A stretch of 64,000 nt of DNA from Escherichia coli (GCF_003334785.1 NZ_QOWV01000008.1), one strand, 5' to 3'; positions 48,855 to 63,715 are shown, numbered from the stretch's first letter. Made by a program: numbers and translations. Notes: generated by a model from the sequence alone, not told the origin.

Positions 48855-49201
48855 AATAAATAGCTGACTTATGGATGTGCTGGGGATTCTATGTATTTAG
48901 CACCGGGTTTGCCATTACTTTTCCTTTTTTTGACTTAATTAGCCTCTGTTTGAGCTGATCTGCCGCTAGATCTTCATTTTTTTTGTATTTTTATGCGATT
49001 CATTGAATTTCAGCCAGGATTGCAGCTTTACATCGACAATATCTGGATTCTCGAGTATGCAAAATTTTATCTCTATGATTTTTATAATTAAAACATATTT
49101 TGTGTATAAAAATCATTCGGGTCGGATTGCTGCGAAAGAAATGATACACTAGCGCGTCAAAGTAAGTGCGTTATCAGTATTCGGGTAGCTGTTGAGCCTG
49201 G

Positions 49202-49213
49202 GGCGGTAGCGTG
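49202..49213 (+). promoter_or_regulatory. ops element (RfaH recruitment) in the waaQ leader
   Basis: Exact ggcggtagcgtg ~50 bp upstream of the waaQ start. Confidence 0.8.
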
Positions 49214-49260: not shown

Positions 49261-50331
49261 GTGGAAAAGCCATTTCGAAAAATCCTGGTCATAAAGATGC
49301 GATATCACGGAGATATGTTATTAACTACTCCTGTAATCAGTACACTCAAGCAGAATTATCCCGACGCAAAAATCGATATGCTGCTTTACCAGGATACAAT
49401 TCCGATTTTATCTGAAAACCCAGAAATTAATGCACTCTATGGTATAAGCAATAAAGGTACGGGAACATTCGATAAAATTAAAAATGCACTTTCACTGATA
49501 AAAACTCTGCGTGCGAATAATTACGACCTGGTCATTAATCTTACGGATCAGTGGATGGTGGCCCTGCTGGTACGTTGTTTACCTGCTCGTATGAAAATAT
49601 CGCAGCTTTATGGTCATCGGCAGCATGGCATTTGGAAAAAAAGCTTTACACACTTAGCGCCTATACACGGTACACATATTGTTGAGCGTAATTTGTCGGT
49701 CCTTGAGCCATTAGGTATTACCGATTTTTATACTGAAACAACCATGAGTTACGCCGAGGATTGCTGGAAGAAAATGCGCCAGGAATTAGATGCACTGGGC
49801 GTGAAAGATCATTATGTCGTCATCCAGCCGACAGCCAGACAGATATTTAAGTGCTGGGACAACGATAAATTTTCTATGGTTATCGATGCGTTGCAACATC
49901 GTGGTTATCAGGTTGTGCTGACTTGTGGCCCTTCGGCAGATGATCTCGCTTGCGTAGATGAAATTGCACGAGGCTGCCAAACAAAACCTATTACCGGCCT
50001 TGCCGGTAAAACACGTTTTCCTGAACTGGGCGCATTAATTGATCATGCAGTGCTCTTTATTGGTGTGGATTCTGCGCCGGGGCATATTGCAGCGGCTGTG
50101 AAGACGCCAGTTATTAGCCTGTTTGGGGCCACTGATCATGTATTCTGGCGTCCATGGACCGAGAATATTATTCAGTTCTGGGCGGGGAATTATCAAAAAA
50201 TGCCTACCCGGCACGAACTTGACCGCAACAAAAAATATCTTTCTGTTATTCCAGCGGAAGATGTCATTGCCGCTACGGAAAAGCTGTTGCCAGAAGATGC
50301 ACCTTCAGCTGACAGGAATGCGCAATTATGA
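49261..50331 (+). CDS. waaQ: LPS heptosyltransferase III (GT9)
   Basis: 356 aa from GTG; FRKILVIKMRYHGDMLLTTPV aligns with N-termini of WaaC/WaaF. Confidence 0.8.
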   Translation: MEKPFRKILVIKMRYHGDMLLTTPVISTLKQNYPDAKIDMLLYQDTIPILSENPEINALYGISNKGTGTFDKIKNALSLIKTLRANNYDLVINLTDQWMVALLVRCLPARMKISQLYGHRQHGIWKKSFTHLAPIHGTHIVERNLSVLEPLGITDFYTETTMSYAEDCWKKMRQELDALGVKDHYVVIQPTARQIFKCWDNDKFSMVIDALQHRGYQVVLTCGPSADDLACVDEIARGCQTKPITGLAGKTRFPELGALIDHAVLFIGVDSAPGHIAAAVKTPVISLFGATDHVFWRPWTENIIQFWAGNYQKMPTRHELDRNKKYLSVIPAEDVIAATEKLLPEDAPSADRNAQL

Positions 50332-51452
50332 TCGTGGCATTTTGCTTATATAAATATTTTCCATTTGGTGGGCTACAGCGTGACTTTATGCGTATTGCCT
50401 CAACAGTTGCCGCACGGGGCCACCATGTTCGGGTATATACACAGTCGTGGGAAGGCGATTGCCCGGAAGCATTTGAGCTTATTCGCGTACCGGTTAAATC
50501 CCATACTAACCATGGACGTAATGCAGAATATTATGCCTGGGTTCAAAACCATCTGAAGGCACATCCCGCTGATCGCGTTGTTGGCTTTAATAAGATGCCT
50601 GGGCTGGATGTTTATTTTGCCGCCGATGTCTGTTATGCCGAGAAAGTGGCGCAAGAAAAGGGATTTTTCTATCGTTTAACATCGCGCTATCGCCATTATG
50701 CTGCATTCGAGCGAGCGACTTTCGAACATGGTAAATCGACGAAACTTATGATGTTGACCGATAAGCAAATCGCCGATTTTCAGAAGCATTACCAAACTGA
50801 ACCAGAACGTTTTCAAATTCTTCCCCCTGGTATCTATCCTGACAGAAAATACAACGCGCAAATCCCAAACAGTCGTGAAATTTATCGCCAGAAAAATGGC
50901 ATCACTGAACAACAAAACTTATTGCTGCAGGTTGGTTCAGATTTTGGTCGTAAAGGTGTGGATCGCTCAATTGAAGCTTTGGCATCGTTACCAGAATCGT
51001 TACGCCATAATACGTTGTTGTTTGTTGTTGGCCAGGATAAACCGCGTAAATTTGAAGTGCTGGCAGAAAAACTCGGTGTGCGTAGTAAAGTGCATTTCTT
51101 TTCCGGGCGGAATGATGTGTCTGAATTAATGGCAGCCGCTGATTTATTAATGCATCCCGCTTATCAGGAGGCTGCAGGTATTGTTCTCCTTGAGGCAATT
51201 GCCGCGGGATTACCTGTGTTGACGACTGCGGTATGCGGATACGCACACTATATCACAGATGCTAATTGTGGAACGGTCATCGCTGAACCTTTCTCCCAGG
51301 AACAATTAAATGACGTTTTACGTAAAGCGTTAACTCAATCTCCATTGCGCATGGCCTGGGCGGAGAATGCTCGGTATTACGCCGATACTCAGGATTTATA
51401 CAGCCTGCCGGAGAAAGCGGCAGATATCATTACAGGTGGTTTAGATGGTTGA
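50328..51452 (+). CDS. waaG: LPS glucosyltransferase I (GT4)
   Basis: 374 aa, GT4 E-x7-E motif, position after waaQ. Confidence 0.85.
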
Positions 51453-52242
51453 ATTAGAAGAGCCACTTGCCACACTCTGGCGTGGTAAAGATGCCTTTGC
51501 AGAAGTTAAAAAACTGAATGGCGAGGTCTTCCGTGAACTGGAGACGCGTCGCACATTACGCTTTGAACTGGCCGGCAAAAGTTATTTCCTCAAATGGCAC
51601 AAAGGGACGACCCTAAAGGAGATTATAAAAAATCTGCTCTCATTGCGGATGCCCGTTTTAGGTGCAGACAGAGAGTGGCACGCTATTCATCGACTGCATG
51701 ATGTCGGTGTTGATACGATGCACGGAATAGGATTTGGTGAAAAAGGGTTAAATCCATTAACTCGCACATCATTTATTATTACCGAAGATCTCACTCCCAC
51801 AATTAGCCTTGAAGATTATTGTGCAGATTGGGCGGTCAACCCGCCTGATGTACATATTAAGCGTATGCTGATCGCGCGTGTGGCAACCATGGTGCGCAAA
51901 ATGCATGCAGCAGGGATTAATCACCGTGATTGTTATATCTGCCACTTTTTACTCCATTTGCCATTTACTGGCCGGGAAGATGAATTAAAAATTTCGGTTA
52001 TCGATCTGCACCGGGCACAGATACGTGCAAAAGTACCACGTCGTTGGCGGGATAAAGATTTGATTGGTTTATATTTCTCATCAATGAATATTGGTCTGAC
52101 GCAGAGAGATATCTGGCGATTTATGAAGGTTTATTTTGGGATGCCTTTACGCGATATTTATAGACTTGAGATTGATTTACTTAAAAAGGCAAGGATTAAA
52201 GCAGGAAAAATAGAAGCAAGAACAATAAGAAAAAACTTGTAA
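51445..52242 (+). CDS. waaP: LPS core heptose(I) kinase
   Basis: 265 aa kinase-like protein, overlaps waaG stop. Confidence 0.85.
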
Positions 52243-52274
52243 ATAGTATTTTATTACAAAAAGGGATTCTAAAA

Positions 52275-53255
52275 TTGTTGAAATATAGAAACTTCGTTGC
52301 TAAGAAGAAAAATTTATACCAAAACGAAGTGTCGTATGTTAAAAATTTACATATTGCACTATGCTTTGACCGTGAATTCATAATGCCAGCGGGTGTTGCA
52401 TTATATTCAATTATATCCAACAATAGACATATTAACCTTCATTTTCACCTTCTTATATCAGGCATAGAAGAAAAGGAGTGTTCAGCTTTTTACGAACTAG
52501 AAGGTCCTAATACATCAATATCTGTATATTATATAACTGATAAATTTGACATTAATCCGGATACATTAGTTCTTGGTATTCCTTTATCAACATGTTTACG
52601 TTTTTTAATCCCAGAAGTTATTGATGATAAAATAAATAAGATACTTTATCTTGACTGTGATGTCATATGTAATGGTCCTTTAGATGAACTGGTTGATTAT
52701 AATTTAAATGCTGATATTGCATGTGTAATTCCAGATTCGCCAGAAATGCAAGAACGTGTAAAAAAATTAGACTATGGCATTGAGTTTATTAATTATTTTA
52801 ATGCCGGGGTTATGTTTATTAATACCAGCGAATGGAAAAAAAATAATATAACACAAAAAGCGTTAGAAATGATCAACAGTGGAAAAGTATATAGGTATGC
52901 AGATCAGGATGTGCTCAATATTTTACTTAATGGACGAGTGCATTACCTTGATAAGAAGTACAATAATAAGACAACATTGTCAGTACGATGTGATGAAGAA
53001 CAAAAAAACTTGCCCAACACAATTATAATGCATTATGTTACCCAGAATAAACCATGGTACAAAATATTTAGAGCACAAAATTTTGATCATTATTTTTCAA
53101 ATTCTCCTTGGAAGAACCATAAAAGAAATCTAGCTCCATCATCAAGTGAGATTAGGTTAAAGTCTAAAGTTTTTTGGCTAGAAGGAAAATATTGTAAAGC
53201 CATTTCTTATTATTATAAGTATTTACTTGTTAAATTATTTGGCTTAAAGATTTAG
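52275..53255 (+). CDS. GT8-family LPS core glycosyltransferase (waaS position)
   Basis: 326 aa, AT-rich; GT8 motifs YLDCDVIC, FNAGVMFIN, HYVTQNKPW; identity within the waa family not resolved. Confidence 0.6.
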   Translation: MLKYRNFVAKKKNLYQNEVSYVKNLHIALCFDREFIMPAGVALYSIISNNRHINLHFHLLISGIEEKECSAFYELEGPNTSISVYYITDKFDINPDTLVLGIPLSTCLRFLIPEVIDDKINKILYLDCDVICNGPLDELVDYNLNADIACVIPDSPEMQERVKKLDYGIEFINYFNAGVMFINTSEWKKNNITQKALEMINSGKVYRYADQDVLNILLNGRVHYLDKKYNNKTTLSVRCDEEQKNLPNTIIMHYVTQNKPWYKIFRAQNFDHYFSNSPWKNHKRNLAPSSSEIRLKSKVFWLEGKYCKAISYYYKYLLVKLFGLKI

Positions 53256-53268
53256 CTGGAATGAAATT

Positions 53269-54348
53269 ATGAAAATAGCCTTTATTGGCGAAGCTGTTTC
53301 TGGATTTGGCGGCATGGAAACAGTCATTCGTGATGTTATTACTACCTTCAGGCAACAACATATCCAAAGTGAAATTTTTTTCTTTTGTCGTAATGACAAA
53401 ATGGATAAGGGATGGCTGGAAGGTATTAAGTACTCGTGTTCATTTTCCAATATTCGCTTAGGTTTTTTGCGTCGCGCGAAACATATTCATGCTTTAAGCA
53501 AATGGCTTCATGATTATCAGCCAGATGTTGTTATTTGTATTGACGTGATCTCGTGTTTGTATGCGGCCAAAGCTCGTAAAAAATCGGGGATTGATGTACC
53601 TGTATTTTCATGGCCGCATTTTTCTTTAGATCATAAAAAACATGCCGAATATATCACCTGTGCCGACTATCATTTAGCCATCAGCTCTGGTATTAAACAG
53701 CAAATGATTAGCCGGGGTGTACCAGAATCGACAATAAACGTTATTTTTAATCCCGTTGAGGCGAAAAATTCAGTCATTCCTGCACCCGGGGAAGGCGAAA
53801 CGGCAACATTCATTTATGTTGGGCGCATGAAATTTGAAGGCCAAAAGCGCGTAAAAGATCTGCTTGATGGCTTATCACAAGTGCAAGGTGACTGGAAACT
53901 TCATGTATTGGGAGATGGCTCCGATTTCGAAAAATGCCAGGCTTATGGTAGAGGATTAAATATTGATGATCGAATTGTCTGGTATGGTTGGCAACAACAT
54001 CCCTGGAAATTAGTTCAGCAAGATATTAAAAAAGTGAGTGCATTATTACTCACGTCATCTTTTGAAGGTTTCCCAATGACTCTACTTGAAGCCTTGTCGT
54101 GGGGGATCCCTTGTATCAGTGCAGATTGTGTCTCCGGGCCTGTTGATATCATTCAGCCTGATGTTAATGGTCATTTATATCAACCGGGGGATATGACCGG
54201 TTTTGTTGCTCTTCTCAATAAATACATAGCCGGTGAAATTCACATCGCACATGAAAAAATTCCGGCGTCGATCGATAAATTTTATCAACCGAAATATTAC
54301 GACAGATTGCAAAAGATAATTATTTCTGTTATTTCCCGGAGGAAATAA
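53269..54348 (+). CDS. waaB: LPS 1,6-galactosyltransferase (GT4)
   Basis: 359 aa MKIAFIGEAVSGFGGMETVIRDVITTFRQQ, recalled as WaaB. Confidence 0.8.
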   Translation: MKIAFIGEAVSGFGGMETVIRDVITTFRQQHIQSEIFFFCRNDKMDKGWLEGIKYSCSFSNIRLGFLRRAKHIHALSKWLHDYQPDVVICIDVISCLYAAKARKKSGIDVPVFSWPHFSLDHKKHAEYITCADYHLAISSGIKQQMISRGVPESTINVIFNPVEAKNSVIPAPGEGETATFIYVGRMKFEGQKRVKDLLDGLSQVQGDWKLHVLGDGSDFEKCQAYGRGLNIDDRIVWYGWQQHPWKLVQQDIKKVSALLLTSSFEGFPMTLLEALSWGIPCISADCVSGPVDIIQPDVNGHLYQPGDMTGFVALLNKYIAGEIHIAHEKIPASIDKFYQPKYYDRLQKIIISVISRRK

Positions 54349-55367
54349 TGCAGCAGGTTTTTTTCCAGGAGACTGAGTTTCTCAATTCGGTTATTGATTA
54401 TAATCATAAAATAGAAGCAGAAAATCTTTGTCTGGATATTGCTTATGGGACTGACAAAAATTTTCTTTTTGGATGCGGAATATCGATTGCTTCAATATTA
54501 AAATATAATGAAGGAAATCAATTATGCTTTCATATTTTTACTGATTATTTCGGTGATGACGATCGCAAATATTTTGATGCCCTGGCCAGGCAATATAAAA
54601 CAAGAATTAAGATATATTTAATTAATGGTGATCGACTCCGTTCATTACCCTGCACCAAGAACTGGACTCATGCTATTTATTTTCGTTTTGTTATCGCCGA
54701 TTACTTTTTTAATAAAGCACCCAAAGTTCTTTATCTGGATGCAGATATTATTTGTCAGGGAACTATAGAACCACTTATCAATTACACGTTTTCTGAACAT
54801 ACAGTCGCAATGGTTGTTACAGAAGGACAAAAAGACTGGTGGGCAAAACGTGCTCATTCGTTAGGTGTTGCTGGGATTGCTAATGGTTACTTTAACTCCG
54901 GTTTTTTACTGATTAATACTAATCAATGGACGAATGAGCGGGTTTCTGCACGGGCCATTGCAATGTTAAGTGATCCAGAGATAGTCAAAAAAATAACACA
55001 TCCTGATCAGGATGTATTAAATATGTTATTGGCAGACAAACTTGTTTATGCTGATATTAAATATAACACTCAGTTTAGTTTAAATTATCAACTAAAAGAA
55101 AGTTTTAAAAACCCAGTAACTAACGATACAGTTTTTATTCATTATATTGGTCCAACTAAACCCTGGCATGACTGGGCCTGGGATTATCCAATATCACAAG
55201 CTTTTATGGCGGCAAAAAATGCTTCACCATGGAAGGATACTGCGTTATTGAAACCGGTTAATAGTAATCAATTAAGATACAGTGCTAAACATATGTTGAA
55301 AAAAAAGCAATATATCAAAGGATTTGGCAACTATCTTTTGTATTTTATAAAAAAGCTAAAGCATTAA
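54348..55367 (+). CDS. waaO: LPS alpha-1,3-glycosyltransferase (GT8), WaaO/WaaI type
   Basis: 339 aa, GT8 motifs YLDADIIC, FNSGFLLIN, HYIGPTKPW; follows waaB. Confidence 0.65.
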   Translation: MQQVFFQETEFLNSVIDYNHKIEAENLCLDIAYGTDKNFLFGCGISIASILKYNEGNQLCFHIFTDYFGDDDRKYFDALARQYKTRIKIYLINGDRLRSLPCTKNWTHAIYFRFVIADYFFNKAPKVLYLDADIICQGTIEPLINYTFSEHTVAMVVTEGQKDWWAKRAHSLGVAGIANGYFNSGFLLINTNQWTNERVSARAIAMLSDPEIVKKITHPDQDVLNMLLADKLVYADIKYNTQFSLNYQLKESFKNPVTNDTVFIHYIGPTKPWHDWAWDYPISQAFMAAKNASPWKDTALLKPVNSNQLRYSAKHMLKKKQYIKGFGNYLLYFIKKLKH

Positions 55368-55530
55368 TACTGATAATCTATACTCTAAATAATTCGAGTT
55401 GCAGGACAAAAAGCCAGTGGCGTTTTGAGGAACGCTTGCGTTGGCCCTGAAATGCCGAGTAACTCGCCGATGCAGCACATGCAACTTGAAGTATAACGAG
55501 TATATAAAGTAATGATATAAGGATAGCCTT

Positions 55531-56547
55531 GTGAACTCATTTCCTGCCATAGAGATAGATAAAGTTAAAGCCTGGGATTTTAGGCTTATTGATGAAAATA
55601 CTGCTGAAAGTTTAAATGTTGCCTATGGTGTCGATTCCAATTATCTTGATGGTGTAGGTGTTTCCATTACTTCAATTGTCATTAATAATCGACATGTTAA
55701 TCTTGATTTTTATATTATTGCTGATGTTTATAACGACGATTTCTTTCAAAAAGTTGAGAAACTTGCTGAGCAATACCAATTAAGAATCACACTTTATAGA
55801 ATAAATACTGATAATCTTCAGTGCCTGCCTTGTACACAAGTCTGGTCAAGAGCAATGTACTTCCGTTTATTTGCTTTTCAATTATTGGGAGTAACACTTA
55901 ATCGTTTGCTTTATCTTGATGCCGATGTAGTTTGTAAGGGAAATATTAGTCAACTATTGCATTTAGAGTTTAATGGAGCGGTGGCTGCAGTAGTCAGGGA
56001 TGTAGACCCAATGCAGGAAAAGGCGGTAGTCAGATTATCTGATCCTGAACTTCGGGGGCAGTATTTTAATTCTGGTGTCGTTTACTTAGACCTAAAAAAA
56101 TGGACAGAAGCAAAACTAACCGAAAAAGCACTGTCTATTCTTATGAGTAAAGATAGTATTTATAAGTATCCTGACCAGGACGTTATGAATGTCCTACTAA
56201 AAGGGATGACAATATTCCTGCCACGTGAGTTCAATACTATATATACAATAAAAAGTGAGTTAAAAGATAAAACGCATCAAAAATATAAAGAGTTGATAAA
56301 AGAGGATACTCTTCTTATTCATTATACTGGGGCCACCAAGCCGTGGCACAAATGGGCAATTTATCCATCGGTAAAATACTATAAAATAGCTTTAGAAAGA
56401 TCCCCCTGGAAAGATGACTCACCACGAGATGCAAAATCAATTATTGAATTCAAAAAAAGATATAAACATCTGTTAGTGCAACATCATTATATCTCAGGAC
56501 TCATTGCAGGAGTGTGTTATCTTTGCCGAAAATATTACCGTAAATAA
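55531..56547 (+). CDS. waaJ: LPS alpha-1,2-glycosyltransferase (GT8), WaaR/WaaJ type
   Basis: 338 aa, GT8 motifs YLDADVVC, FNSGVVYLD, HYTGATKPW. Confidence 0.6.
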   Translation: MNSFPAIEIDKVKAWDFRLIDENTAESLNVAYGVDSNYLDGVGVSITSIVINNRHVNLDFYIIADVYNDDFFQKVEKLAEQYQLRITLYRINTDNLQCLPCTQVWSRAMYFRLFAFQLLGVTLNRLLYLDADVVCKGNISQLLHLEFNGAVAAVVRDVDPMQEKAVVRLSDPELRGQYFNSGVVYLDLKKWTEAKLTEKALSILMSKDSIYKYPDQDVMNVLLKGMTIFLPREFNTIYTIKSELKDKTHQKYKELIKEDTLLIHYTGATKPWHKWAIYPSVKYYKIALERSPWKDDSPRDAKSIIEFKKRYKHLLVQHHYISGLIAGVCYLCRKYYRK

Positions 56548-56564
56548 CATTTAACTGGTTTAAC

Positions 56565-57263
56565 ATGATTCAGAAGAATAAAATCAAAGATTTAGTTGTT
56601 TTTACCGATGAAAATAACTCAAAGTATCTCAATGTATTAAATGACTTTCTTTCTTATGATATTAATATCATCAAAGTTTTTCGTTCTATAGATGATACAA
56701 AAGTCATGCTTATTGATACCGATTACGGTAAATTGATACTTAAAGTTTTTTCGCCTAAAGTAAAACGCAACGAACGTTTCTTTAAATCTCTTTTAAAGGG
56801 AGATTATTATGAACGCCTTTTTGAGCATACTCAAAAAGTGCGTAACGAGGGGCTACATTCTCTCAATGATTTTTATTTGTTGGCAGAACGGAAAACATTA
56901 CGTTTTGTCCATACTTATATCATGCTTATCGAATATATCGATGGCGTAGAGTTGTGTGATATCCCCGATATTGATGAAACTTTAAAAAATAAAATTCAAC
57001 AATCAATTCGTTCATTACACGAACACGGTATGGTATCTGGTGATCCTCACCGCGGTAATTTTATTATTGAAAATGGTGAAGTACGCATTATTGATCTTTC
57101 AGGAAAACGGGCATCTGCACAACGTAAAGCGAAAGATCGTATTGATTTAGAGCGACATTATGGTATTAAGAATGAGGTTAAAGATCTCGGTTATTATCTT
57201 TTAGTTTATCGTAAAAAAATACGTAATCTTATGCGGCGTTTGAAAGGGAAGCCAGCACGATAA
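56565..57263 (+). CDS. waaY: LPS core heptose(II) kinase
   Basis: 232 aa, kinase-like (GDPHRGNFII), position. Confidence 0.75.
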   Translation: MIQKNKIKDLVVFTDENNSKYLNVLNDFLSYDINIIKVFRSIDDTKVMLIDTDYGKLILKVFSPKVKRNERFFKSLLKGDYYERLFEHTQKVRNEGLHSLNDFYLLAERKTLRFVHTYIMLIEYIDGVELCDIPDIDETLKNKIQQSIRSLHEHGMVSGDPHRGNFIIENGEVRIIDLSGKRASAQRKAKDRIDLERHYGIKNEVKDLGYYLLVYRKKIRNLMRRLKGKPAR

Positions 57264-57334
57264 AGTAAAAGTCTTACATTTAAACGTCTTCGTCAGGACA
57301 TTTCTATGCGGAGTTCTTATTTCACAGGTTTATC

Positions 57335-58144
57335 ATGAAGAATATTAGATACATTGACAAAAAAGATGTTGAAAACCTGATAGAAAGTAAAACGTCTGAT
57401 GATGTTATTATTTTTCTTTCCGGCCCCACATCGCAAAAAACACCATTGTCAGTGCTGCAGACAAGGGATGTTATTGCTGTCAATGGTTCTGCACAATATC
57501 TATTAAGTCATAATATTATTCCCTATATTTATGTACTTACCGATGTTCGCTTTTTACATCAACGGCGTGATGATTTTTATAAATTTAGCCAGAGAAGTCG
57601 TTATACCATCGTAAATGTTGACGTTTATGAACATGCTTCTGAAGAAGATAAGCGGTACATCCTTCAAAACTGCCTGGTACTACGTTCATTTTACCGCAGA
57701 GAAAAAGGTGGATTGATCAAGAAGATCAAGTTTAATATTTTGAGCCGAATTCATAAAGAGCTCCTGATCTCTGTACCTTTTTCTAAAAAAGGTCGTCTGG
57801 TTGGCTTTTGCAAGGATATTAACCTCGGTTATTGTTCATGCCATACCGTTGCTTTTGCTGCAATCCAAATAGCCTATTCGCTGAAGTATGCTCGTATTAT
57901 CTGTTCAGGCCTTGATTTAACGGGTAGCTGTTCGCGTTTCTATGATGAAGATAAGAATCCTATGCCCTCAGAGTTGATTCGGGATTTATTCAAAATTTTA
58001 CCATTTTTCCGTTTTATGCGTGAAAATATAGAAGATATCAATATTTATAATTTATCCGACGATACTGCAATTCAATATGATATTATTCCCTATATGAAAA
58101 TATCCGAAATTGAAGAGCCGTGTGTTTATGAAAAAATAAGCTAA
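57335..58144 (+). CDS. waaZ: LPS core biosynthesis protein (WaaZ position)
   Basis: 269 aa, AT-rich, between waaY and the terminal GT4 gene. Confidence 0.55.
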   Translation: MKNIRYIDKKDVENLIESKTSDDVIIFLSGPTSQKTPLSVLQTRDVIAVNGSAQYLLSHNIIPYIYVLTDVRFLHQRRDDFYKFSQRSRYTIVNVDVYEHASEEDKRYILQNCLVLRSFYRREKGGLIKKIKFNILSRIHKELLISVPFSKKGRLVGFCKDINLGYCSCHTVAFAAIQIAYSLKYARIICSGLDLTGSCSRFYDEDKNPMPSELIRDLFKILPFFRFMRENIEDINIYNLSDDTAIQYDIIPYMKISEIEEPCVYEKIS

Positions 58145-58196
58145 TATTTTATATGTGTTTATTACGTGTTATAAATTATATTGGAGTTGGCTAATA

Positions 58197-59339
58197 ATGA
58201 TTAAAAAAATAATATTTACCGTCACACCAATATTTTCTATACCGCCAAAAGGAGCTGCAGCGGTTGAAACATGGATTTATCAGGTCGCAAAAAGACTTTC
58301 GATTCCAGTAACTATCGCCTGTATTCGAAACGAAGGTTACCCAACCTACACAAAAGTAAATGATCACTGTGATATTCACTACATTGGTTTTAGTCGAGTC
58401 TATAAACGACTTTTCCAAAAGTGGACTCGACTTGATCCTGTGCCATATTCTCAGCGTATTTTAAATACCCAACCTAAAAACACTGATCCGAAAGACTCTG
58501 TTATTGTTATCCACAATAGCATGAAGCTGTATAAACAGATTCGTAGCAGAAGCCCTCACGCGCAGCTAGTTATGCATCTTCATAATGCTTTCGAGCCAGG
58601 TGAGTTAGACAAAAATGCAAAGATAATTGTTCCTAGCCAGTTTCTTTTCGATTTCTATTCGGAAAAAATGCCTGATGCAAATATTGCTATTGTGCCTAAT
58701 GGTTTTTGTTCTGAATCGTATGAACAAAATAATACTGAAGATTTGAGGCAGAAACTGAACATTGATGCAAATGATACCGTGTTATTATTTGCAGGAAGGA
58801 TATCACCAGATAAAGGTTGCCTGATGCTTATGGAGGCTTTTAATCAGCTGAATAAGATACAAGATAACCTCAAACTGGTGATTGTCGGAGATCCTTTTGC
58901 CAGTAAAAAAGGCGAAAAAGCTGAATATCAGAAAAAAGTTCTGGATGCAGCGAAAGCTATTGGAGCGCAATGCATTATGGCGGGTGGACAGCCTCCAGAG
59001 CAGATGCATAACTATTACCGTTTAGCAGATTTAGTTGTTGTTCCTTCTCAGGTAGAAGAAGCTTTTTGTATGGTAGCTGTTGAAGCGATGGCGGCAGGTA
59101 AACCAGTGCTTGCCAGTCAAAAAGGTGGAATTAGTGAGTTTGTTCTGGAAGGAATTACAGGCTATCACCTTGCAGAGCCTATGACATCTGAAAGTATTCT
59201 CGCGGATATTAAGCGCGTTTTGGCGGATGCTGACAGAGCTCAAATTGCTAAAAATGCCCGAAATTTTGTTTTCTCAAAATATAGCTGGGAACATGTTACT
59301 CAGCGTTTTGAAGCACAAATACAAGACTGGTTTGGTTAA
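58197..59339 (+). CDS. waaK: GT4 glycosyltransferase, WaaK-like
   Basis: 380 aa from ATG 58197 (GGAG upstream); GT4 E-x7-E motif EAFCMVAVEAMAAGKPV; last gene before waaL. Confidence 0.6.
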   Translation: MIKKIIFTVTPIFSIPPKGAAAVETWIYQVAKRLSIPVTIACIRNEGYPTYTKVNDHCDIHYIGFSRVYKRLFQKWTRLDPVPYSQRILNTQPKNTDPKDSVIVIHNSMKLYKQIRSRSPHAQLVMHLHNAFEPGELDKNAKIIVPSQFLFDFYSEKMPDANIAIVPNGFCSESYEQNNTEDLRQKLNIDANDTVLLFAGRISPDKGCLMLMEAFNQLNKIQDNLKLVIVGDPFASKKGEKAEYQKKVLDAAKAIGAQCIMAGGQPPEQMHNYYRLADLVVVPSQVEEAFCMVAVEAMAAGKPVLASQKGGISEFVLEGITGYHLAEPMTSESILADIKRVLADADRAQIAKNARNFVFSKYSWEHVTQRFEAQIQDWFG

Positions 59340-59357
59340 AAATTATTGGATTTGAAG

Positions 59358-59394
59358 AGCCTGCCTGAACTTAATGTCAGGCAGGCTTTTTTTT
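59358..59394. terminator. bidirectional terminator between waaK and waaL
   Basis: agcctgcctgaacttaatgtcaggcaggct hairpin followed by TTTTTTTT; overlaps waaL stop. Confidence 0.7.
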
Positions 59395-60610
59395 ATTTAT
59401 TCCGCATTGCTAACAGTAAACCAACAATCAAGCCAATTGGTTTGAGATCAACTTCCTCGAAGTTACCTCGAATAATATAAAAGCTTACAAGCGTTAAAAA
59501 TAGTAGTAATTGACCATTATAAGGAGTGACGACAACTGTTTTAAACGTTGCATTAGCTGTCTCTTTGATAATAGAGCCATACAGATAAAGTAAAGCGAGT
59601 AGTCCAGCCAAACCCGCTGCAAACCAAATTGACAAAACAACGTTGTGTGGCCCAATGGATTGCCTGAACTTCCATGACGGAAAATCTACAACACGCTTAT
59701 TATATATTGCATGGTAAATATCATCGCCGTAGCCATATCCCTTAAGAGGATTTTCCATAATTAATGTCCACGCCGTACCTTGAGTACCATTGGTATAGCG
59801 ATAAGAACTGTCGGTCTGTTGAAGTTTATAAATAAGCCTGTCTTTACCAGCATGATCACCTTTATAGGTAAATACACCCACTGCGGCAACAGAAATAACG
59901 ATGGAAGTCAGCATCAATAATTTCCACTGACGATTTAAGATTAACCATAGCAGAGTCACTATGAATACTGCCAGCCATGCACCACGAGACAGCGTTCCTA
60001 ATAGCAGAAATAAGAAAACTGCACTAAAAATTACGAATGCTATTTTATAAGAGGTTTTCTTGATAAGCCAAAGGTTTAATAATGCTGGAAACAGAAACAC
60101 CATTGAATCGGAAATACTACGGTGTTCATAGGTGGAAAATGGCATTATTCCTTTATTATAATCCTGAATATAAAGAATAAGTTCAACAAGACAACGTAAG
60201 CCAAGTCCGGTAACTAATGAGTATAGTACAATTTTACCAATGCTTTCATTATCTTCATCTTTTAATAATGCAGGTATAAGTAAACTATAGGCCAAAAATC
60301 CTTTAAGTACCGTATTACTGAATTCTTTAAAACTGATTTTCAGATCAGGTGATATAAAAGTAGCATATAAAAGAATGAGTGATAGTGCCAGGACACTATA
60401 AAAAAGATTATTTTTATAGAGTACTTTAAATGTTCCCGGAGCACGAGAAACTTGATAGATTACCGTAATAATCATTAGTATAGATATGATGTGTTTATAA
60501 CGGGTTATACCATCAAGGAAAAAGGTTGCAATAAAGAGGAATACCAACGCTTTATTCCAGTACGGTTTCCACTTTTCTTTATTACGTAGCGCCAGCGAGG
60601 CTGTTAACAT
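59393..60610 (-). CDS. waaL: O-antigen ligase
   Basis: 405 aa polytopic membrane protein between waaK and waaC. Confidence 0.8.
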   Translation of the reverse strand: MLTASLALRNKEKWKPYWNKALVFLFIATFFLDGITRYKHIISILMIITVIYQVSRAPGTFKVLYKNNLFYSVLALSLILLYATFISPDLKISFKEFSNTVLKGFLAYSLLIPALLKDEDNESIGKIVLYSLVTGLGLRCLVELILYIQDYNKGIMPFSTYEHRSISDSMVFLFPALLNLWLIKKTSYKIAFVIFSAVFLFLLLGTLSRGAWLAVFIVTLLWLILNRQWKLLMLTSIVISVAAVGVFTYKGDHAGKDRLIYKLQQTDSSYRYTNGTQGTAWTLIMENPLKGYGYGDDIYHAIYNKRVVDFPSWKFRQSIGPHNVVLSIWFAAGLAGLLALLYLYGSIIKETANATFKTVVVTPYNGQLLLFLTLVSFYIIRGNFEEVDLKPIGLIVGLLLAMRNK

Positions 60611-60648
60611 TGCTTCTCCACCATCTTAAATAATATATAACGTATTAA

Positions 60649-61605
60649 TCAGGAATTGATTTTATTAAATACCGTTTCTGCAGTCAGATGAGCAAGATCT
60701 TTATCTGGTGCCCTACAAACCACCTGATTCTTCCCATATCCGCCAATTAATCCCGGATCGGTTGGTCCATAAACCGTGATATTCGGTCGATCCAGTGCTG
60801 CAGTTAAATGACTTAACCCAGTGTCTACCGATACCACGAATTTCGCTCCGGCCAGCACACGGGCAACACCTTCCAGACTCATCTTCGGCAATACTTCAAC
60901 ATAAGCAAATCCTTCCGCCAGTCGTTTCGCCCGTTTTTCCTCATGCGGCGCACCCCACGGAAGTTTAATGCGAATCCCTGAATCTGCCAGTAAACCAATC
61001 AATTCTCGCCAGTGTTCTTCCGGCCAGTGTTTATCATCACGGGTCGTCGCATGAAGAAATACGGCATATTCGCCAGCATCTGTAGGCAGGTTCGTCAGAA
61101 AATGCTGTGCGATAGCATAATCGCCCTGGGTTTGCGGTTTGCTATAGCCCAGACTTTTGGCAAAAAGTTCGCGGATGCGTTCTACGGCGTGCTGCTGTTT
61201 TGCAATATGATGTTTACGATTGTAAAACAGGCTGGCTAAAGGTTCGCGAGCGGTTTGCCAGTCCATTCCATGCTTTACGCCATGCGCCAGACGCGTCACC
61301 AGCGCCGCGCTTTTTACCAGCCCCTGAGCATCGATAACTGCGTCATAGTTCTCTGCTTGTAGCGCTTCACGAAACGCTTTGCGTTCAGCTTTTATGGGGG
61401 CCGAGAACCAGGCTTTACGCCAGCGACGTATTGCCACAGGAATAACTCGCTCAACGGCGGCGTGCCAGGAAGGAATCTGTGCGAACCCTTCTTCCACCAC
61501 CCAGTCAAACTTAATCCCTGGGATTGCCTGCTGGGCATCAGTGAGTGCGGGCAACGTATGGAGAACATCGCCCATCGACGATGTTTTAACGATCAAAACC
61601 CGCAT
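60649..61605 (-). CDS. waaC: LPS heptosyltransferase I
   Basis: 318 aa MRVLIVKTSSMGDVLHTLPALTDA. Confidence 0.9.
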   Translation of the reverse strand: MRVLIVKTSSMGDVLHTLPALTDAQQAIPGIKFDWVVEEGFAQIPSWHAAVERVIPVAIRRWRKAWFSAPIKAERKAFREALQAENYDAVIDAQGLVKSAALVTRLAHGVKHGMDWQTAREPLASLFYNRKHHIAKQQHAVERIRELFAKSLGYSKPQTQGDYAIAQHFLTNLPTDAGEYAVFLHATTRDDKHWPEEHWRELIGLLADSGIRIKLPWGAPHEEKRAKRLAEGFAYVEVLPKMSLEGVARVLAGAKFVVSVDTGLSHLTAALDRPNITVYGPTDPGLIGGYGKNQVVCRAPDKDLAHLTAETVFNKINS

Positions 61606-61608
61606 CCG

Positions 61609-62655
61609 TCAGGCTTCCTCTTGTAACAATAGAGAGTTGAGTTCTTCCAGCACGCGCTGGGGAGTAATGTCGATCAAGCTCTGGTGATAACCTTCTGCGG
61701 CGTCGCCTTTGCGTACTTTGTGATAGCCGGTAATCAGGCGGATCACGCGCGCTTTATGGGATAGCGGCGGTGTGAAGTCCGGGCTACTCGGACCATACAG
61801 GGCAACCAGCGGACGATTGAGCGCCGCCGCAACGTGCATCAGGCCAGAATCGTTAGTGACAATGGCTTTACAGGCTGCAATCAGGATAACCGCTTGATCA
61901 AGCTGTGTTTCCCCCGCCAGGTTCCGGCACCATGCCTGCTGCTCGGTATTTAAAGCGGCAAGAATCTCATTGCCCGCTTCATGATCTTTCGCCGAGCCAA
62001 ACAGAACCACTTGATAACCTTCATCAATCAGTTGCTTTGCCAGTTCCGCATAGTGGTAGTGTGGCCAGCGTTTTGCCGGACCAAACTCCGCACCCGGGCA
62101 AAAACCAATCATTGGACGTTCTGATGAAAGCGAAAATTGATTACAGGTATATGATTTTTCACCTTCGCTCACCTGCAACTGCGGCCATAACAATGGCTGC
62201 GGCAGATCTTGTGCGGTACGCATAATACCTTTGTCATAGGCCAGCGCCACATAGCGTTCCACCATCAGCGGCCAGGCTTCTTTATCCAGCACACGCACAT
62301 CGTTGAGTAAACCGTAGCGCATTTCGCCGCGCCAGCCGGTGCGATGAGGAATACCCGCGAAGAAAGGCACTAATGCGGATTTGAAGGAGTTGGGTAAAAC
62401 GTAGGCGCGGTCGTAACGTTTTTCGCGCAGGCTATGACCCAGCTTGCGGCGTTCGCCAATTTCCAGCGCCCCGTGACCAAGCGGCATAGGAATGGCTTCG
62501 TTAACTTCCGGCATCCGCGATAATAATGGACGGCACCATGCCGGTGCCATCACGTCGATTATCGCCTGGGGATAGCGCGCCTGGAGCGTGCGATAGAGAC
62601 TTTGCGACATCATCATGTCGCCAACCCATGACGGGCCGATCACCAATATTTTCAT
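61609..62655 (-). CDS. waaF: LPS heptosyltransferase II
   Basis: 348 aa MKILVIGPSWVGDMMMSQSLYRTLQARYPQ. Confidence 0.9.
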   Translation of the reverse strand: MKILVIGPSWVGDMMMSQSLYRTLQARYPQAIIDVMAPAWCRPLLSRMPEVNEAIPMPLGHGALEIGERRKLGHSLREKRYDRAYVLPNSFKSALVPFFAGIPHRTGWRGEMRYGLLNDVRVLDKEAWPLMVERYVALAYDKGIMRTAQDLPQPLLWPQLQVSEGEKSYTCNQFSLSSERPMIGFCPGAEFGPAKRWPHYHYAELAKQLIDEGYQVVLFGSAKDHEAGNEILAALNTEQQAWCRNLAGETQLDQAVILIAACKAIVTNDSGLMHVAAALNRPLVALYGPSSPDFTPPLSHKARVIRLITGYHKVRKGDAAEGYHQSLIDITPQRVLEELNSLLLQEEA

Positions 62656-62734
62656 TCACTTCATCCTTCAAGCTGTCTCTGCGGCGGCTGCCTGCGTTCA
62701 CTCCGGTCACTTACTTTTGTAAGCTCCCGGAGAT

Positions 62735-63715
62735 TCACTTAGTTGCTGCCTTGATACCGCTCGAATGATTTTGTGAATTTACGTTGATGTCGCGATTCAG
62801 CCAGGCCATGTATTCCGTTACGCCTTCGGCAACGGTTTTGAACGGTTTGTCATAACCCGCCGCGCGCAGATTCGTCAGATCTGCCTGCGTGAATGCCTGA
62901 TAGCGGCCTTTCAGTTTATCCGGGAACGGAATGTATTCGATCTGGCCTTTCTTGTGATAAGCAAGCGTTGCATCGGCTACCGCCTGGAAGGATTCCGCAC
63001 GACCAGTACCGAGGTTGAAGATGCCGGAAACGCCATTTTCCAGGAACCACAGGTTTACATCTGCCACGTCGCCAACATAGACGAAGTCGCGTTTAAAGTT
63101 CTCGCTACCTTCGAACAGCTTCGGTGATTCACCGTTATTAAGCTGGGTGTTGAGATGGAAAGCGACGCTCGCCATGCTGCCTTTATGGCCTTCACGCGGT
63201 CCATAAACGTTGAAATAACGGAAGCCAACAATCTGTGAGTTTGCTTCCGGCAGAATTTGACGAACATATTCATCAAACAGGAATTTCGAGTAACCGTAGA
63301 CGTTCAACGGTTTTTCGTACTCGCGGGATTCAATAAAGTCGGAAGTGCGACCGCCGTAAGTGGCTGCGGATGAAGCGTACAGGAACGGGATTTCACGCTC
63401 CAGGCAGTAGTGCAGCAGCTCCTTGGAGTATTGATAGTTGTTATCCATCATATACTTGCCGTCCCACTCGGTGGTGGAAGAGCACGCGCCTTCGTGGAAA
63501 ATCGCTTCGACATCGCCGAACTCTTCGCCAGCCATAATCTGGATCAGGAAGTCTTCCTTATCCATATAGTCTGCGATATTCAGGTCCACCAGGTTCACAA
63601 ACTTGGTGCCGTCTTTCAGGTTGTCCACCACCAGAATATCGGTGATGCCTTTGTCATTCAGGGCTTTAACGATGTTGCTGCCGATAAAGCCCGCGCCGCC
63701 GGTAACGATGATCAT
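62735..63715 (-). CDS. hldD: ADP-L-glycero-D-manno-heptose 6-epimerase, C-terminus apparently extended
   Basis: [23 protein letters not shown]...; ORF is 326 aa, ending ...[23 protein letters not shown] rather than the ...AWLNRDA I recall. Confidence 0.85.

Follow-up and report, generated by a model that had tools for sequence, protein, structure and literature searches.

Genes and core type of the waa locus

The stretch of Escherichia coli DNA considered here (GCF_003334785.1, NZ_QOWV01000008.1; 64,000 nucleotides in all, hereafter the window) carries at 49.2-60.6 kb what is almost certainly the chromosomal waa (rfa) locus of a strain whose lipopolysaccharide (LPS) core is of the R2 type. 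A listing of the open reading frames (ORFs) between 46 and 64 kb gives mutM; coaD and waaA on the minus strand; a run of ten genes on the plus strand at 49261-59339; and waaL, waaC, waaF and hldD, again on the minus strand. Taken from the ORFs, from family models and from the RefSeq annotation, the gene order is waaQ-G-P-wabA-B-O-R-Y-Z-K with a convergent waaL, the whole lying between waaA and waaC, and RefSeq annotates the same 11 genes on an identical locus. The ORFs that a first-pass annotation of this DNA had listed were all recovered by ORF calling, on the plus strand and at the same coordinates.

Gene content, orthology, typing and regulatory elements were read directly from the DNA. The features are given below with amino-acid identities to the K-12 reference (the MG1655 waa locus, b3619-b3633) and to Salmonella, the latter represented by a contig of S. 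enterica subsp. salamae (locus L004) that was found through its GT8 homologue. Enzyme names are those of the characterised orthologues.

49175-49213, plus strand: JUMPstart element in the waaQ leader, with ops site GGCGGTAG (49202-49209); Rfam RF01707, 53.1 bits (gathering score 35)
49261-50331, plus strand: waaQ, heptosyltransferase III (GT9); 98% identical to K-12 WaaQ; rfaQ in RefSeq
50328-51452, plus strand: waaG, glucosyltransferase I (GT4), for glucose (Glc) I onto heptose (Hep) II; 96% identical to K-12 WaaG; also in RefSeq
51445-52242, plus strand: waaP, Hep I kinase; NF011703, 460 bits (cut-off 170); K-12 91%
52275-53255, plus strand: wabA, putative GT8 retaining hexosyltransferase of 326 residues, in the waaS slot of K-12
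53269-54348, plus strand: waaB, alpha-1,6-galactosyltransferase (GT4), 359 residues; NF007396, 593 bits (cut-off 385); K-12 92%, Salmonella 63%
54348-55367, plus strand: waaO, GT8 alpha-1,3-glucosyltransferase (Glc II) by K-12 orthology, 339 residues; K-12 WaaO 88%, Salmonella WaaI 55%
55531-56547, plus strand: waaR (rfaJ), GT8 alpha-1,2-glucosyltransferase (Glc III), 338 residues; K-12 WaaJ(R) 90%, Salmonella WaaJ 58%
56565-57263, plus strand: waaY, Hep II kinase, 232 residues; NF007684 (RfaY), 394 bits (cut-off 248); K-12 92%, Salmonella 67%
57335-58144, plus strand: waaZ, transferase of the third 3-deoxy-D-manno-octulosonate residue (Kdo III), 269 residues; NF007333, 547 bits (cut-off 473); K-12 89%, Salmonella 69%
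58197-59339, plus strand: waaK, GT4 alpha-1,2-N-acetylglucosaminyltransferase, the R2-defining gene; NF012028, 724 bits (cut-off 618); Salmonella WaaK 74%
59354-59391, both directions: intrinsic terminator hairpin between the convergent waaK and waaL; 15-bp stem containing 7 G-C pairs, then a T-run
59393-60610, minus strand: waaL, O-antigen ligase of R2/Salmonella type; NF012031 (RfaL), 651 bits (cut-off 277); Salmonella WaaL 66%
60649-63715, minus strand: waaC, waaF and hldD (rfaD), the inner-core heptose operon; K-12 95%, 99% and 100%

Equivalog or subfamily cut-offs of NCBIfam are exceeded by WaaB, WaaO, RfaY, WaaZ, the N-acetylglucosamine (GlcNAc) transferase, RfaL and RfaP. WabA, WaaO and WaaR all match a single GT8 model, NF011718 (E-values of 5e-54, 3e-172 and 3e-83, respectively, the curated cut-off of 461 bits being passed by WaaO only, with 572 bits), and the operon therefore holds three GT8 paralogues, as proposed at first pass. 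The terminal gene is likewise the 380-residue GT4 gene originally described. Its ATG start at 58197 has a GGAG site 9 nucleotides upstream and coincides with the RefSeq start, while the mechanical ORF from GTG 58155 would encode 394 residues. The expected E-x7-E motif occupies residues 288-296 of the 380-residue protein (E288-E296, EAFCMVAVE), and several GT4 family models match residues 171-388 of the 394-residue translation; WaaK thus shows both the motif and the Glycos_transf_1 domain by which CAZy recognises GT4. The claim that 52.2-60.6 kb is AT-rich was also borne out: G+C content is 35.3% over 52200-60610, compared with 50.3% over positions 1-49000 of the window and 51.8% over waaC-hldD, that is, about 50-52% in the flanks.

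Core typing by polymerase chain reaction (PCR), which the first-pass annotation had recommended, was carried out in silico with the published primers (PMC13293308 Table 2). The R2 primers match without mismatch at 57681-57701 on the plus strand and, in the case of R2-F, at 58270-58290 on the minus strand, inside waaK; the resulting waaZ-waaK product of 610 bp has the published size. From the K-12 pair, K12-R matches in the shared gene waaY, and the window contains no site for K12-F, the waaU primer. The R1 and R4 primers have no match in the window, and of the R3 primers only one matches, at a single site with three mismatches and without a partner. The typing product is specific to R2.

Many E. 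coli chromosomes carry the 11.35-kb block from waaQ to waaL with 100% identity. Among 5,426 complete E. coli genomes a match of at least 99% was found in 480 and coverage of at least 80% in 501. R2 is a minority type in the survey (9.3% of the genomes, around 1 in 11).

Relation to K-12, Salmonella and F632

The locus shares with K-12 its flanking genes (mutM, coaD, waaA, waaC, waaF and hldD), its JUMPstart leader and eight orthologues at 88-98% amino-acid identity. The differences are confined to three proteins, WabA, WaaK and WaaL, that have no K-12 orthologue (BLASTP, E<1e-3), in agreement with the original suggestion of an outer-core type other than that of K-12; uniformly K-12 best matches, WaaS and WaaU included, were not observed. 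Where the window has wabA, K-12 has waaS; where the window has waaK, a GT4 GlcNAc transferase gene, K-12 has waaU, the GT9 heptosyltransferase IV gene with which, as correctly stated at first pass, the K-12 operon ends; and the waaL genes of the two loci are unrelated. Each of these pairs (the 326-residue WabA and WaaS, the 380-residue WaaK and WaaU, the two WaaL proteins) lacks BLASTP similarity. The presence of waaS and waaU marks the K-12 core type, and the locus shows neither protein nor DNA similarity to either gene.

In nucleotide alignment, the homology with K-12 breaks off at exactly two cassettes. The first, 52153-53267, covers the last 90 nucleotides of waaP together with wabA, K-12 homology stopping at 52152. 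The second, 58100-60705, covers the 3' end of waaZ, waaK, waaL and the 3' end of waaC, K-12 homology ending at 58099. In the outer-core region, segments shared with K-12 have 87-88% nucleotide identity, compared with 94-97% in the flanks, and this is the usual deep allelic divergence of the waa locus. Since waaK stands in for waaU and waaL is unrelated, the site of O-antigen attachment differs from that of K-12.

The locus also invites comparison with the R2 waa cluster of E. coli F632 (Heinrichs, Monteiro, Perry & Whitfield 1998, J Biol Chem 273:8849, as cited in PMC13293308). Gene set and order are the same, K-12-like genes are combined with a Salmonella-like waaK and waaL, and the 610-bp R2 amplicon is shared. 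With the Salmonella locus, too, the gene order is identical: a GT8 gene lies between waaP and waaB, waaZ, a GT4 waaK and a convergent waaL are all present, and the whole locus is collinear at 65-74% nucleotide identity. The proteins, however, are only 55-86% identical to their Salmonella counterparts throughout (66% for WabA), whereas in DNA the locus shows 100% identity to chromosomes of E. coli, which is not what a Salmonella Ra-type locus would give. The backbone transferases WaaO and WaaR, at 88% and 90%, are of the K-12 type rather than the Salmonella WaaI and WaaJ type (55% and 58%). Of the label 'R2/Salmonella-like' given at first pass, the R2 part stands; the Salmonella part fails for the locus as a whole, given that WaaB, WaaO, WaaR, WaaY and WaaZ are 88-92% identical to K-12 and 55-69% to Salmonella.

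Several other accounts of the locus may be weighed against its assignment to R2. Eight genes out of 11 being 88-98% identical to K-12, and the K12-R primer matching in waaY, one might suppose a K-12-type operon in which waaS and waaU had been mis-called as GT8 and GT4 genes. This is ruled out by BLASTP, by the typing primers and by DNA alignment: the three protein pairs are dissimilar, K12-F has no site, and 52153-53267 and 58100-60705 lack K-12 DNA homology. The chance that it is correct is negligible. Scarcely any probability attaches, either, to a hybrid arrangement, meaning a K-12 locus with waaK in place of waaU or an R2 locus with waaU in place of waaK. Such loci exist (PMC13293308), but here wabA, waaK and the R2-type waaL occur together, neither waaS nor waaU is found in the window, and the 11.35 kb are identical throughout to a common R2 haplotype (the 480 genomes at 99% or more). 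Moreover, wabA and full-length waaK occur in nearly equal numbers of the surveyed genomes, 503 and 501.

A different matter is whether the R2 type is itself a recent recombinant, a K-12-like locus that imported waaK-waaL (and wabA) from Salmonella. R2 was originally called a 'hybrid' that combines the K-12 system with the Salmonella one (title of Heinrichs 1998, as quoted in PMC13293308), and the closest characterised relatives of the three non-K-12 genes are indeed those of Salmonella. Yet the Salmonella identities of WabA, WaaK and WaaL (66%, 74% and 66%) fall in the same range as those of the other outer-core genes, the entire locus is collinear with Salmonella, and Citrobacter and Pseudocitrobacter, and probably also E. 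marmotae and E. ruysiae, have WabA in the same slot. Because of these identities, and because the slot is conserved in Citrobacter and Pseudocitrobacter, a recent import from Salmonella seems improbable. The evidence, drawn from protein identities, collinearity and slot conservation, favours the simpler reading in which the R2 order would be ancestral and K-12 would be derived from it by replacement of wabA with waaS. We found no evidence contradicting the assignment of the locus to R2.

Core assembly and local repeats

The ten genes would be transcribed from upstream of waaQ as a single long transcript, ending at the hairpin after waaK. RfaH, loaded at JUMPstart/ops, would sustain elongation, this element being the RfaH loading site for antitermination of long LPS operons (PMC6358824). 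A scan for promoter-like sites inside the operon was uninformative (42 sites, 43.9 expected).

Individual enzyme activities are predicted by orthology with enzymes that have been characterised from K-12, R2 and Salmonella; the heptose kinases are known to be WaaP and WaaY, the transferase of Hep III to be WaaQ and that of the third Kdo to be WaaZ (PMC6358824). The substrate for assembly would be Hep2-Kdo2-lipid A at the cytoplasmic face of the inner membrane, on which the enzymes would act in sequence. WaaG would add Glc I, WaaP the phosphate of Hep I, WaaQ Hep III and WaaY the phosphate of Hep II. WaaB would then contribute the alpha-1,6 galactose (Gal) branch, WaaO Glc II and WaaR Glc III, after which WaaK would cap Glc III with an alpha-1,2-linked GlcNAc and WaaZ would provide a non-stoichiometric third Kdo. 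Following export, the R2/Salmonella-type WaaL would join O-antigen to a core recognised through the GlcNAc added by WaaK, a residue that the R2 WaaL is described as needing in order to recognise its acceptor (Heinrichs 1998, quoted in PMC13293308).

The published R2 core has the composition Glc3-GlcNAc-Gal-Hep3-Kdo with a terminal GlcNAc-(1->2)-Glc (PMC7504096). By orthology, its sugars map to WaaG, WaaO and WaaR for the three Glc, to WaaB for Gal and to WaaK for GlcNAc. Five of the six outer-core transferases are thereby covered, and WabA is left without a residue. Since the products of waaB, waaO, waaR, waaY and waaZ resemble those of K-12 far more closely than those of Salmonella (88-92% against 55-69% amino-acid identity), the hexose backbone is predicted to be Glc-Glc-Glc, as in K-12. 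The chemical structure that belongs to the R2 type, and is accordingly predicted for the source strain, is GlcNAc-(1->2)-Glc-(1->2)-Glc-(1->3)-[Gal-(1->6)]-Glc, borne on the heptose region.

Some points qualify this picture. The core structure of the source strain is predicted from its genes. The likeness to F632 (GenBank AF019375), to which no difference was detected, was assessed through gene set and amplicon. Finally, RefSeq and NCBIfam name the product of the R2 waaO gene (54348-55367) 'lipopolysaccharide 3-alpha-galactosyltransferase', at odds with the glucosyltransferase role predicted here. The donor sugar in that name is probably wrong, as the protein has 88% identity to WaaO of K-12, a glucosyltransferase, and only 55% to the galactosyltransferase WaaI of Salmonella.

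Two insertions distinguish the region further:

55383-55502, unstranded: hairpin-forming insertion of ~120 bp in the waaO-waaR spacer, resembling a dispersed miniature inverted-repeat transposable element (MITE)
62659-62788: enterobacterial repetitive intergenic consensus/intergenic repeat unit (ERIC/IRU) insertion at the hldD/waaF junction, ~118 bp extra relative to K-12

The first, which the common R2 haplotype carries, folds into a single long hairpin with imperfect pairing (dG -42.6 kcal/mol, z -4.0) and ends 28 nucleotides upstream of the waaR start codon. It is absent from both K-12 and the divergent R2 strain MB53, each of which has a 39-bp spacer, and ~80%-identical copies lie elsewhere on other E. 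coli chromosomes, with 1-3 such sites per genome. The insertion resembles a small MITE-like dispersed repeat and is no part of the core-type definition. In K-12 the region upstream of waaR is under small RNA control (PMC6358824). The Rfam candidates for the insertion, SAM-II at 18.5 bits and V_AS5 at 16.5 bits, were rejected as sub-threshold chance matches. The second insertion contains, back to back and with 3 mismatches each, both ERIC-PCR primer sequences, and was identified as an ERIC/IRU element on that account. By displacing the hldD stop codon it lengthens HldD from 310 to 326 residues with a new 17-residue tail, and RefSeq annotates this long form.

The GT8 protein WabA

The R2 waa locus is already known, having been described in 1998, and the activity of WabA is the only point that it leaves for research. 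The first-pass annotation regarded the GT8 gene at the waaS position as of unclear identity. The position was correct; the 326-residue gene bears the name wabA in R2 loci (PMC13293308) and its product is unrelated to K-12 WaaS. According to the same typing paper WaaS and WabA may introduce 'additional modifications', no activity being given (PMC13293308), and a full-text literature search for the name wabA returned only this 2025 paper and its preprint, neither with an activity. Database names within the WabA cluster are all either generic ('glycosyltransferase family 8 protein') or copied from enzymes of WaaO/WaaI type.

The gene starts with TTG, followed by a second TTG, and has an AAGGGA ribosome-binding site 7 nucleotides upstream; in alignment, its homologues start at the equivalent position. 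Its G+C content of 29.7% is the lowest in the locus. The protein is 29-31% identical to K-12 WaaO and WaaJ(R), and residues 35-264 match the LgtC structures 1SS9 and 1GA8 (E 6e-17). LgtC of Neisseria meningitidis (1GA8, 1G9R, 1SS9) is the structural archetype of GT8 retaining transferases, and its DxD, DQD and HY..KPW elements are retained in WabA. D127 and D129 (the DxD), D210-Q211-D212-V213 and H253...K259-P260-W261 are invariant in an alignment of 12 sequences with orthologues down to 44% identity. WabA in this way displays the GT-A signature that CAZy gives for GT8 (DxD, DQD(V/I)LN and the C-terminal His of HY..KPW), and Pfam PF01501 is recorded on its homologues. The similarity to LgtC is nevertheless distant and the LgtC acceptor is a lacto-series lipooligosaccharide, so that neither donor nor acceptor of WabA can be deduced from it.

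Within E. coli, wabA is full-length in each of the 503 carriers among the 5,426 genomes (485 at 99% identity or more) and is always present as one chromosomal copy. The ratio of nonsynonymous to synonymous substitution rates (dN/dS) relative to the MB53 allele, 94.3% identical, is 0.24. Judged from its sequence, WabA is a catalytically intact, maintained GT8 enzyme under purifying selection.

Orthologues occur in E. marmotae and E. ruysiae, probably in the same slot as in the window, and others lie in loci of more distant genera:

S. salamae: terminal gene waaK (GT4); waaB present
Citrobacter sp., in the slot downstream of waaP: terminal gene GT9, waaU-like; waaB present
Pseudocitrobacter sp., in the slot downstream of waaP: terminal gene GT9, waaU-like; waaB absent

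On these sequences, the wabA slot and the terminal-gene cassette vary independently across genera. As orthologues co-occur with either waaK or a GT9 terminal gene, the function of WabA would be independent of the terminal transferase.

Many WabA-cluster members from Salmonella enterica are annotated as 'partial' (137-316 residues) on contigs of 40-340 kb. The length of these contigs suggests that wabA is frequently truncated or pseudogenised in subsp. enterica.

A gene of the WabA clade lies inside a P2-like prophage of Hafnia paralvei (CP014031; 9001-9969 of the region extracted as L007). Its product is 46% identical to WabA, against 26-31% to WaaO and WaaR, and the gene directly adjoins tail-fibre and tail-fibre-assembly genes, a typical place for a lysogenic-conversion gene.

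What WabA might do can be proposed only tentatively. Our best guess, by analogy, is that it would attach an alpha-hexose, non-stoichiometrically, as a side branch in the Kdo/inner-core region, this target being suggested because the corresponding K-12 slot holds the Kdo-directed rhamnosyltransferase WaaS (PMC6358824). As part of the same speculative proposal, WabA may be the functional counterpart of WaaS. Also possible, though again with limited confidence, is that WabA and its orthologues form an uncharacterised GT8 subfamily, found in the slot downstream of waaP in Escherichia, Salmonella, Citrobacter and Pseudocitrobacter and devoted to non-stoichiometric alpha-hexose decoration of the core. 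A second reason for the Kdo-region target is that substituents on side-chain Kdo do not survive acid hydrolysis, the standard treatment in core analyses. A Gal on the Kdo region is one candidate for the decoration and would be lost in this way. R2 inner cores may carry a partial Gal on Kdo.

On an opposing explanation, wabA would be a GT8 paralogue that is redundant or in decay and contributes nothing to the R2 core. WabA is not needed to account for the outer core published for R2, the database entries examined name no function, many S. enterica cluster members are 'partial' on long contigs, and the gene combines a TTG start with the lowest G+C of the locus. Against decay, on the other hand, stand its full length in all 503 E. 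coli carriers, 485 of them at 99% or more, a dN/dS of 0.24 for two alleles with 5.7% nucleotide divergence, GT8 catalytic residues that are invariant in orthologues down to 44% identity, and a good ribosome-binding site ahead of the start. On balance redundancy is quite unlikely. The proposed Kdo-region branch has difficulties of its own: it draws on gene position and on the partial Gal that R2 inner cores may carry on Kdo, donor and acceptor being suggested by analogy, and the Pseudocitrobacter locus, which has WabA without waaB, would fit an outer-core branch role as well.

Where O-antigen is attached, many of the specificities of phages and antibodies, and compatibility for glyco-engineering all depend on the core type, and the R2 label is a useful, if routine, annotation of the source strain. 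If the proposal for WabA is true, its decoration could alter phage receptors, as suggested by the 46%-identical copy in the Hafnia prophage.

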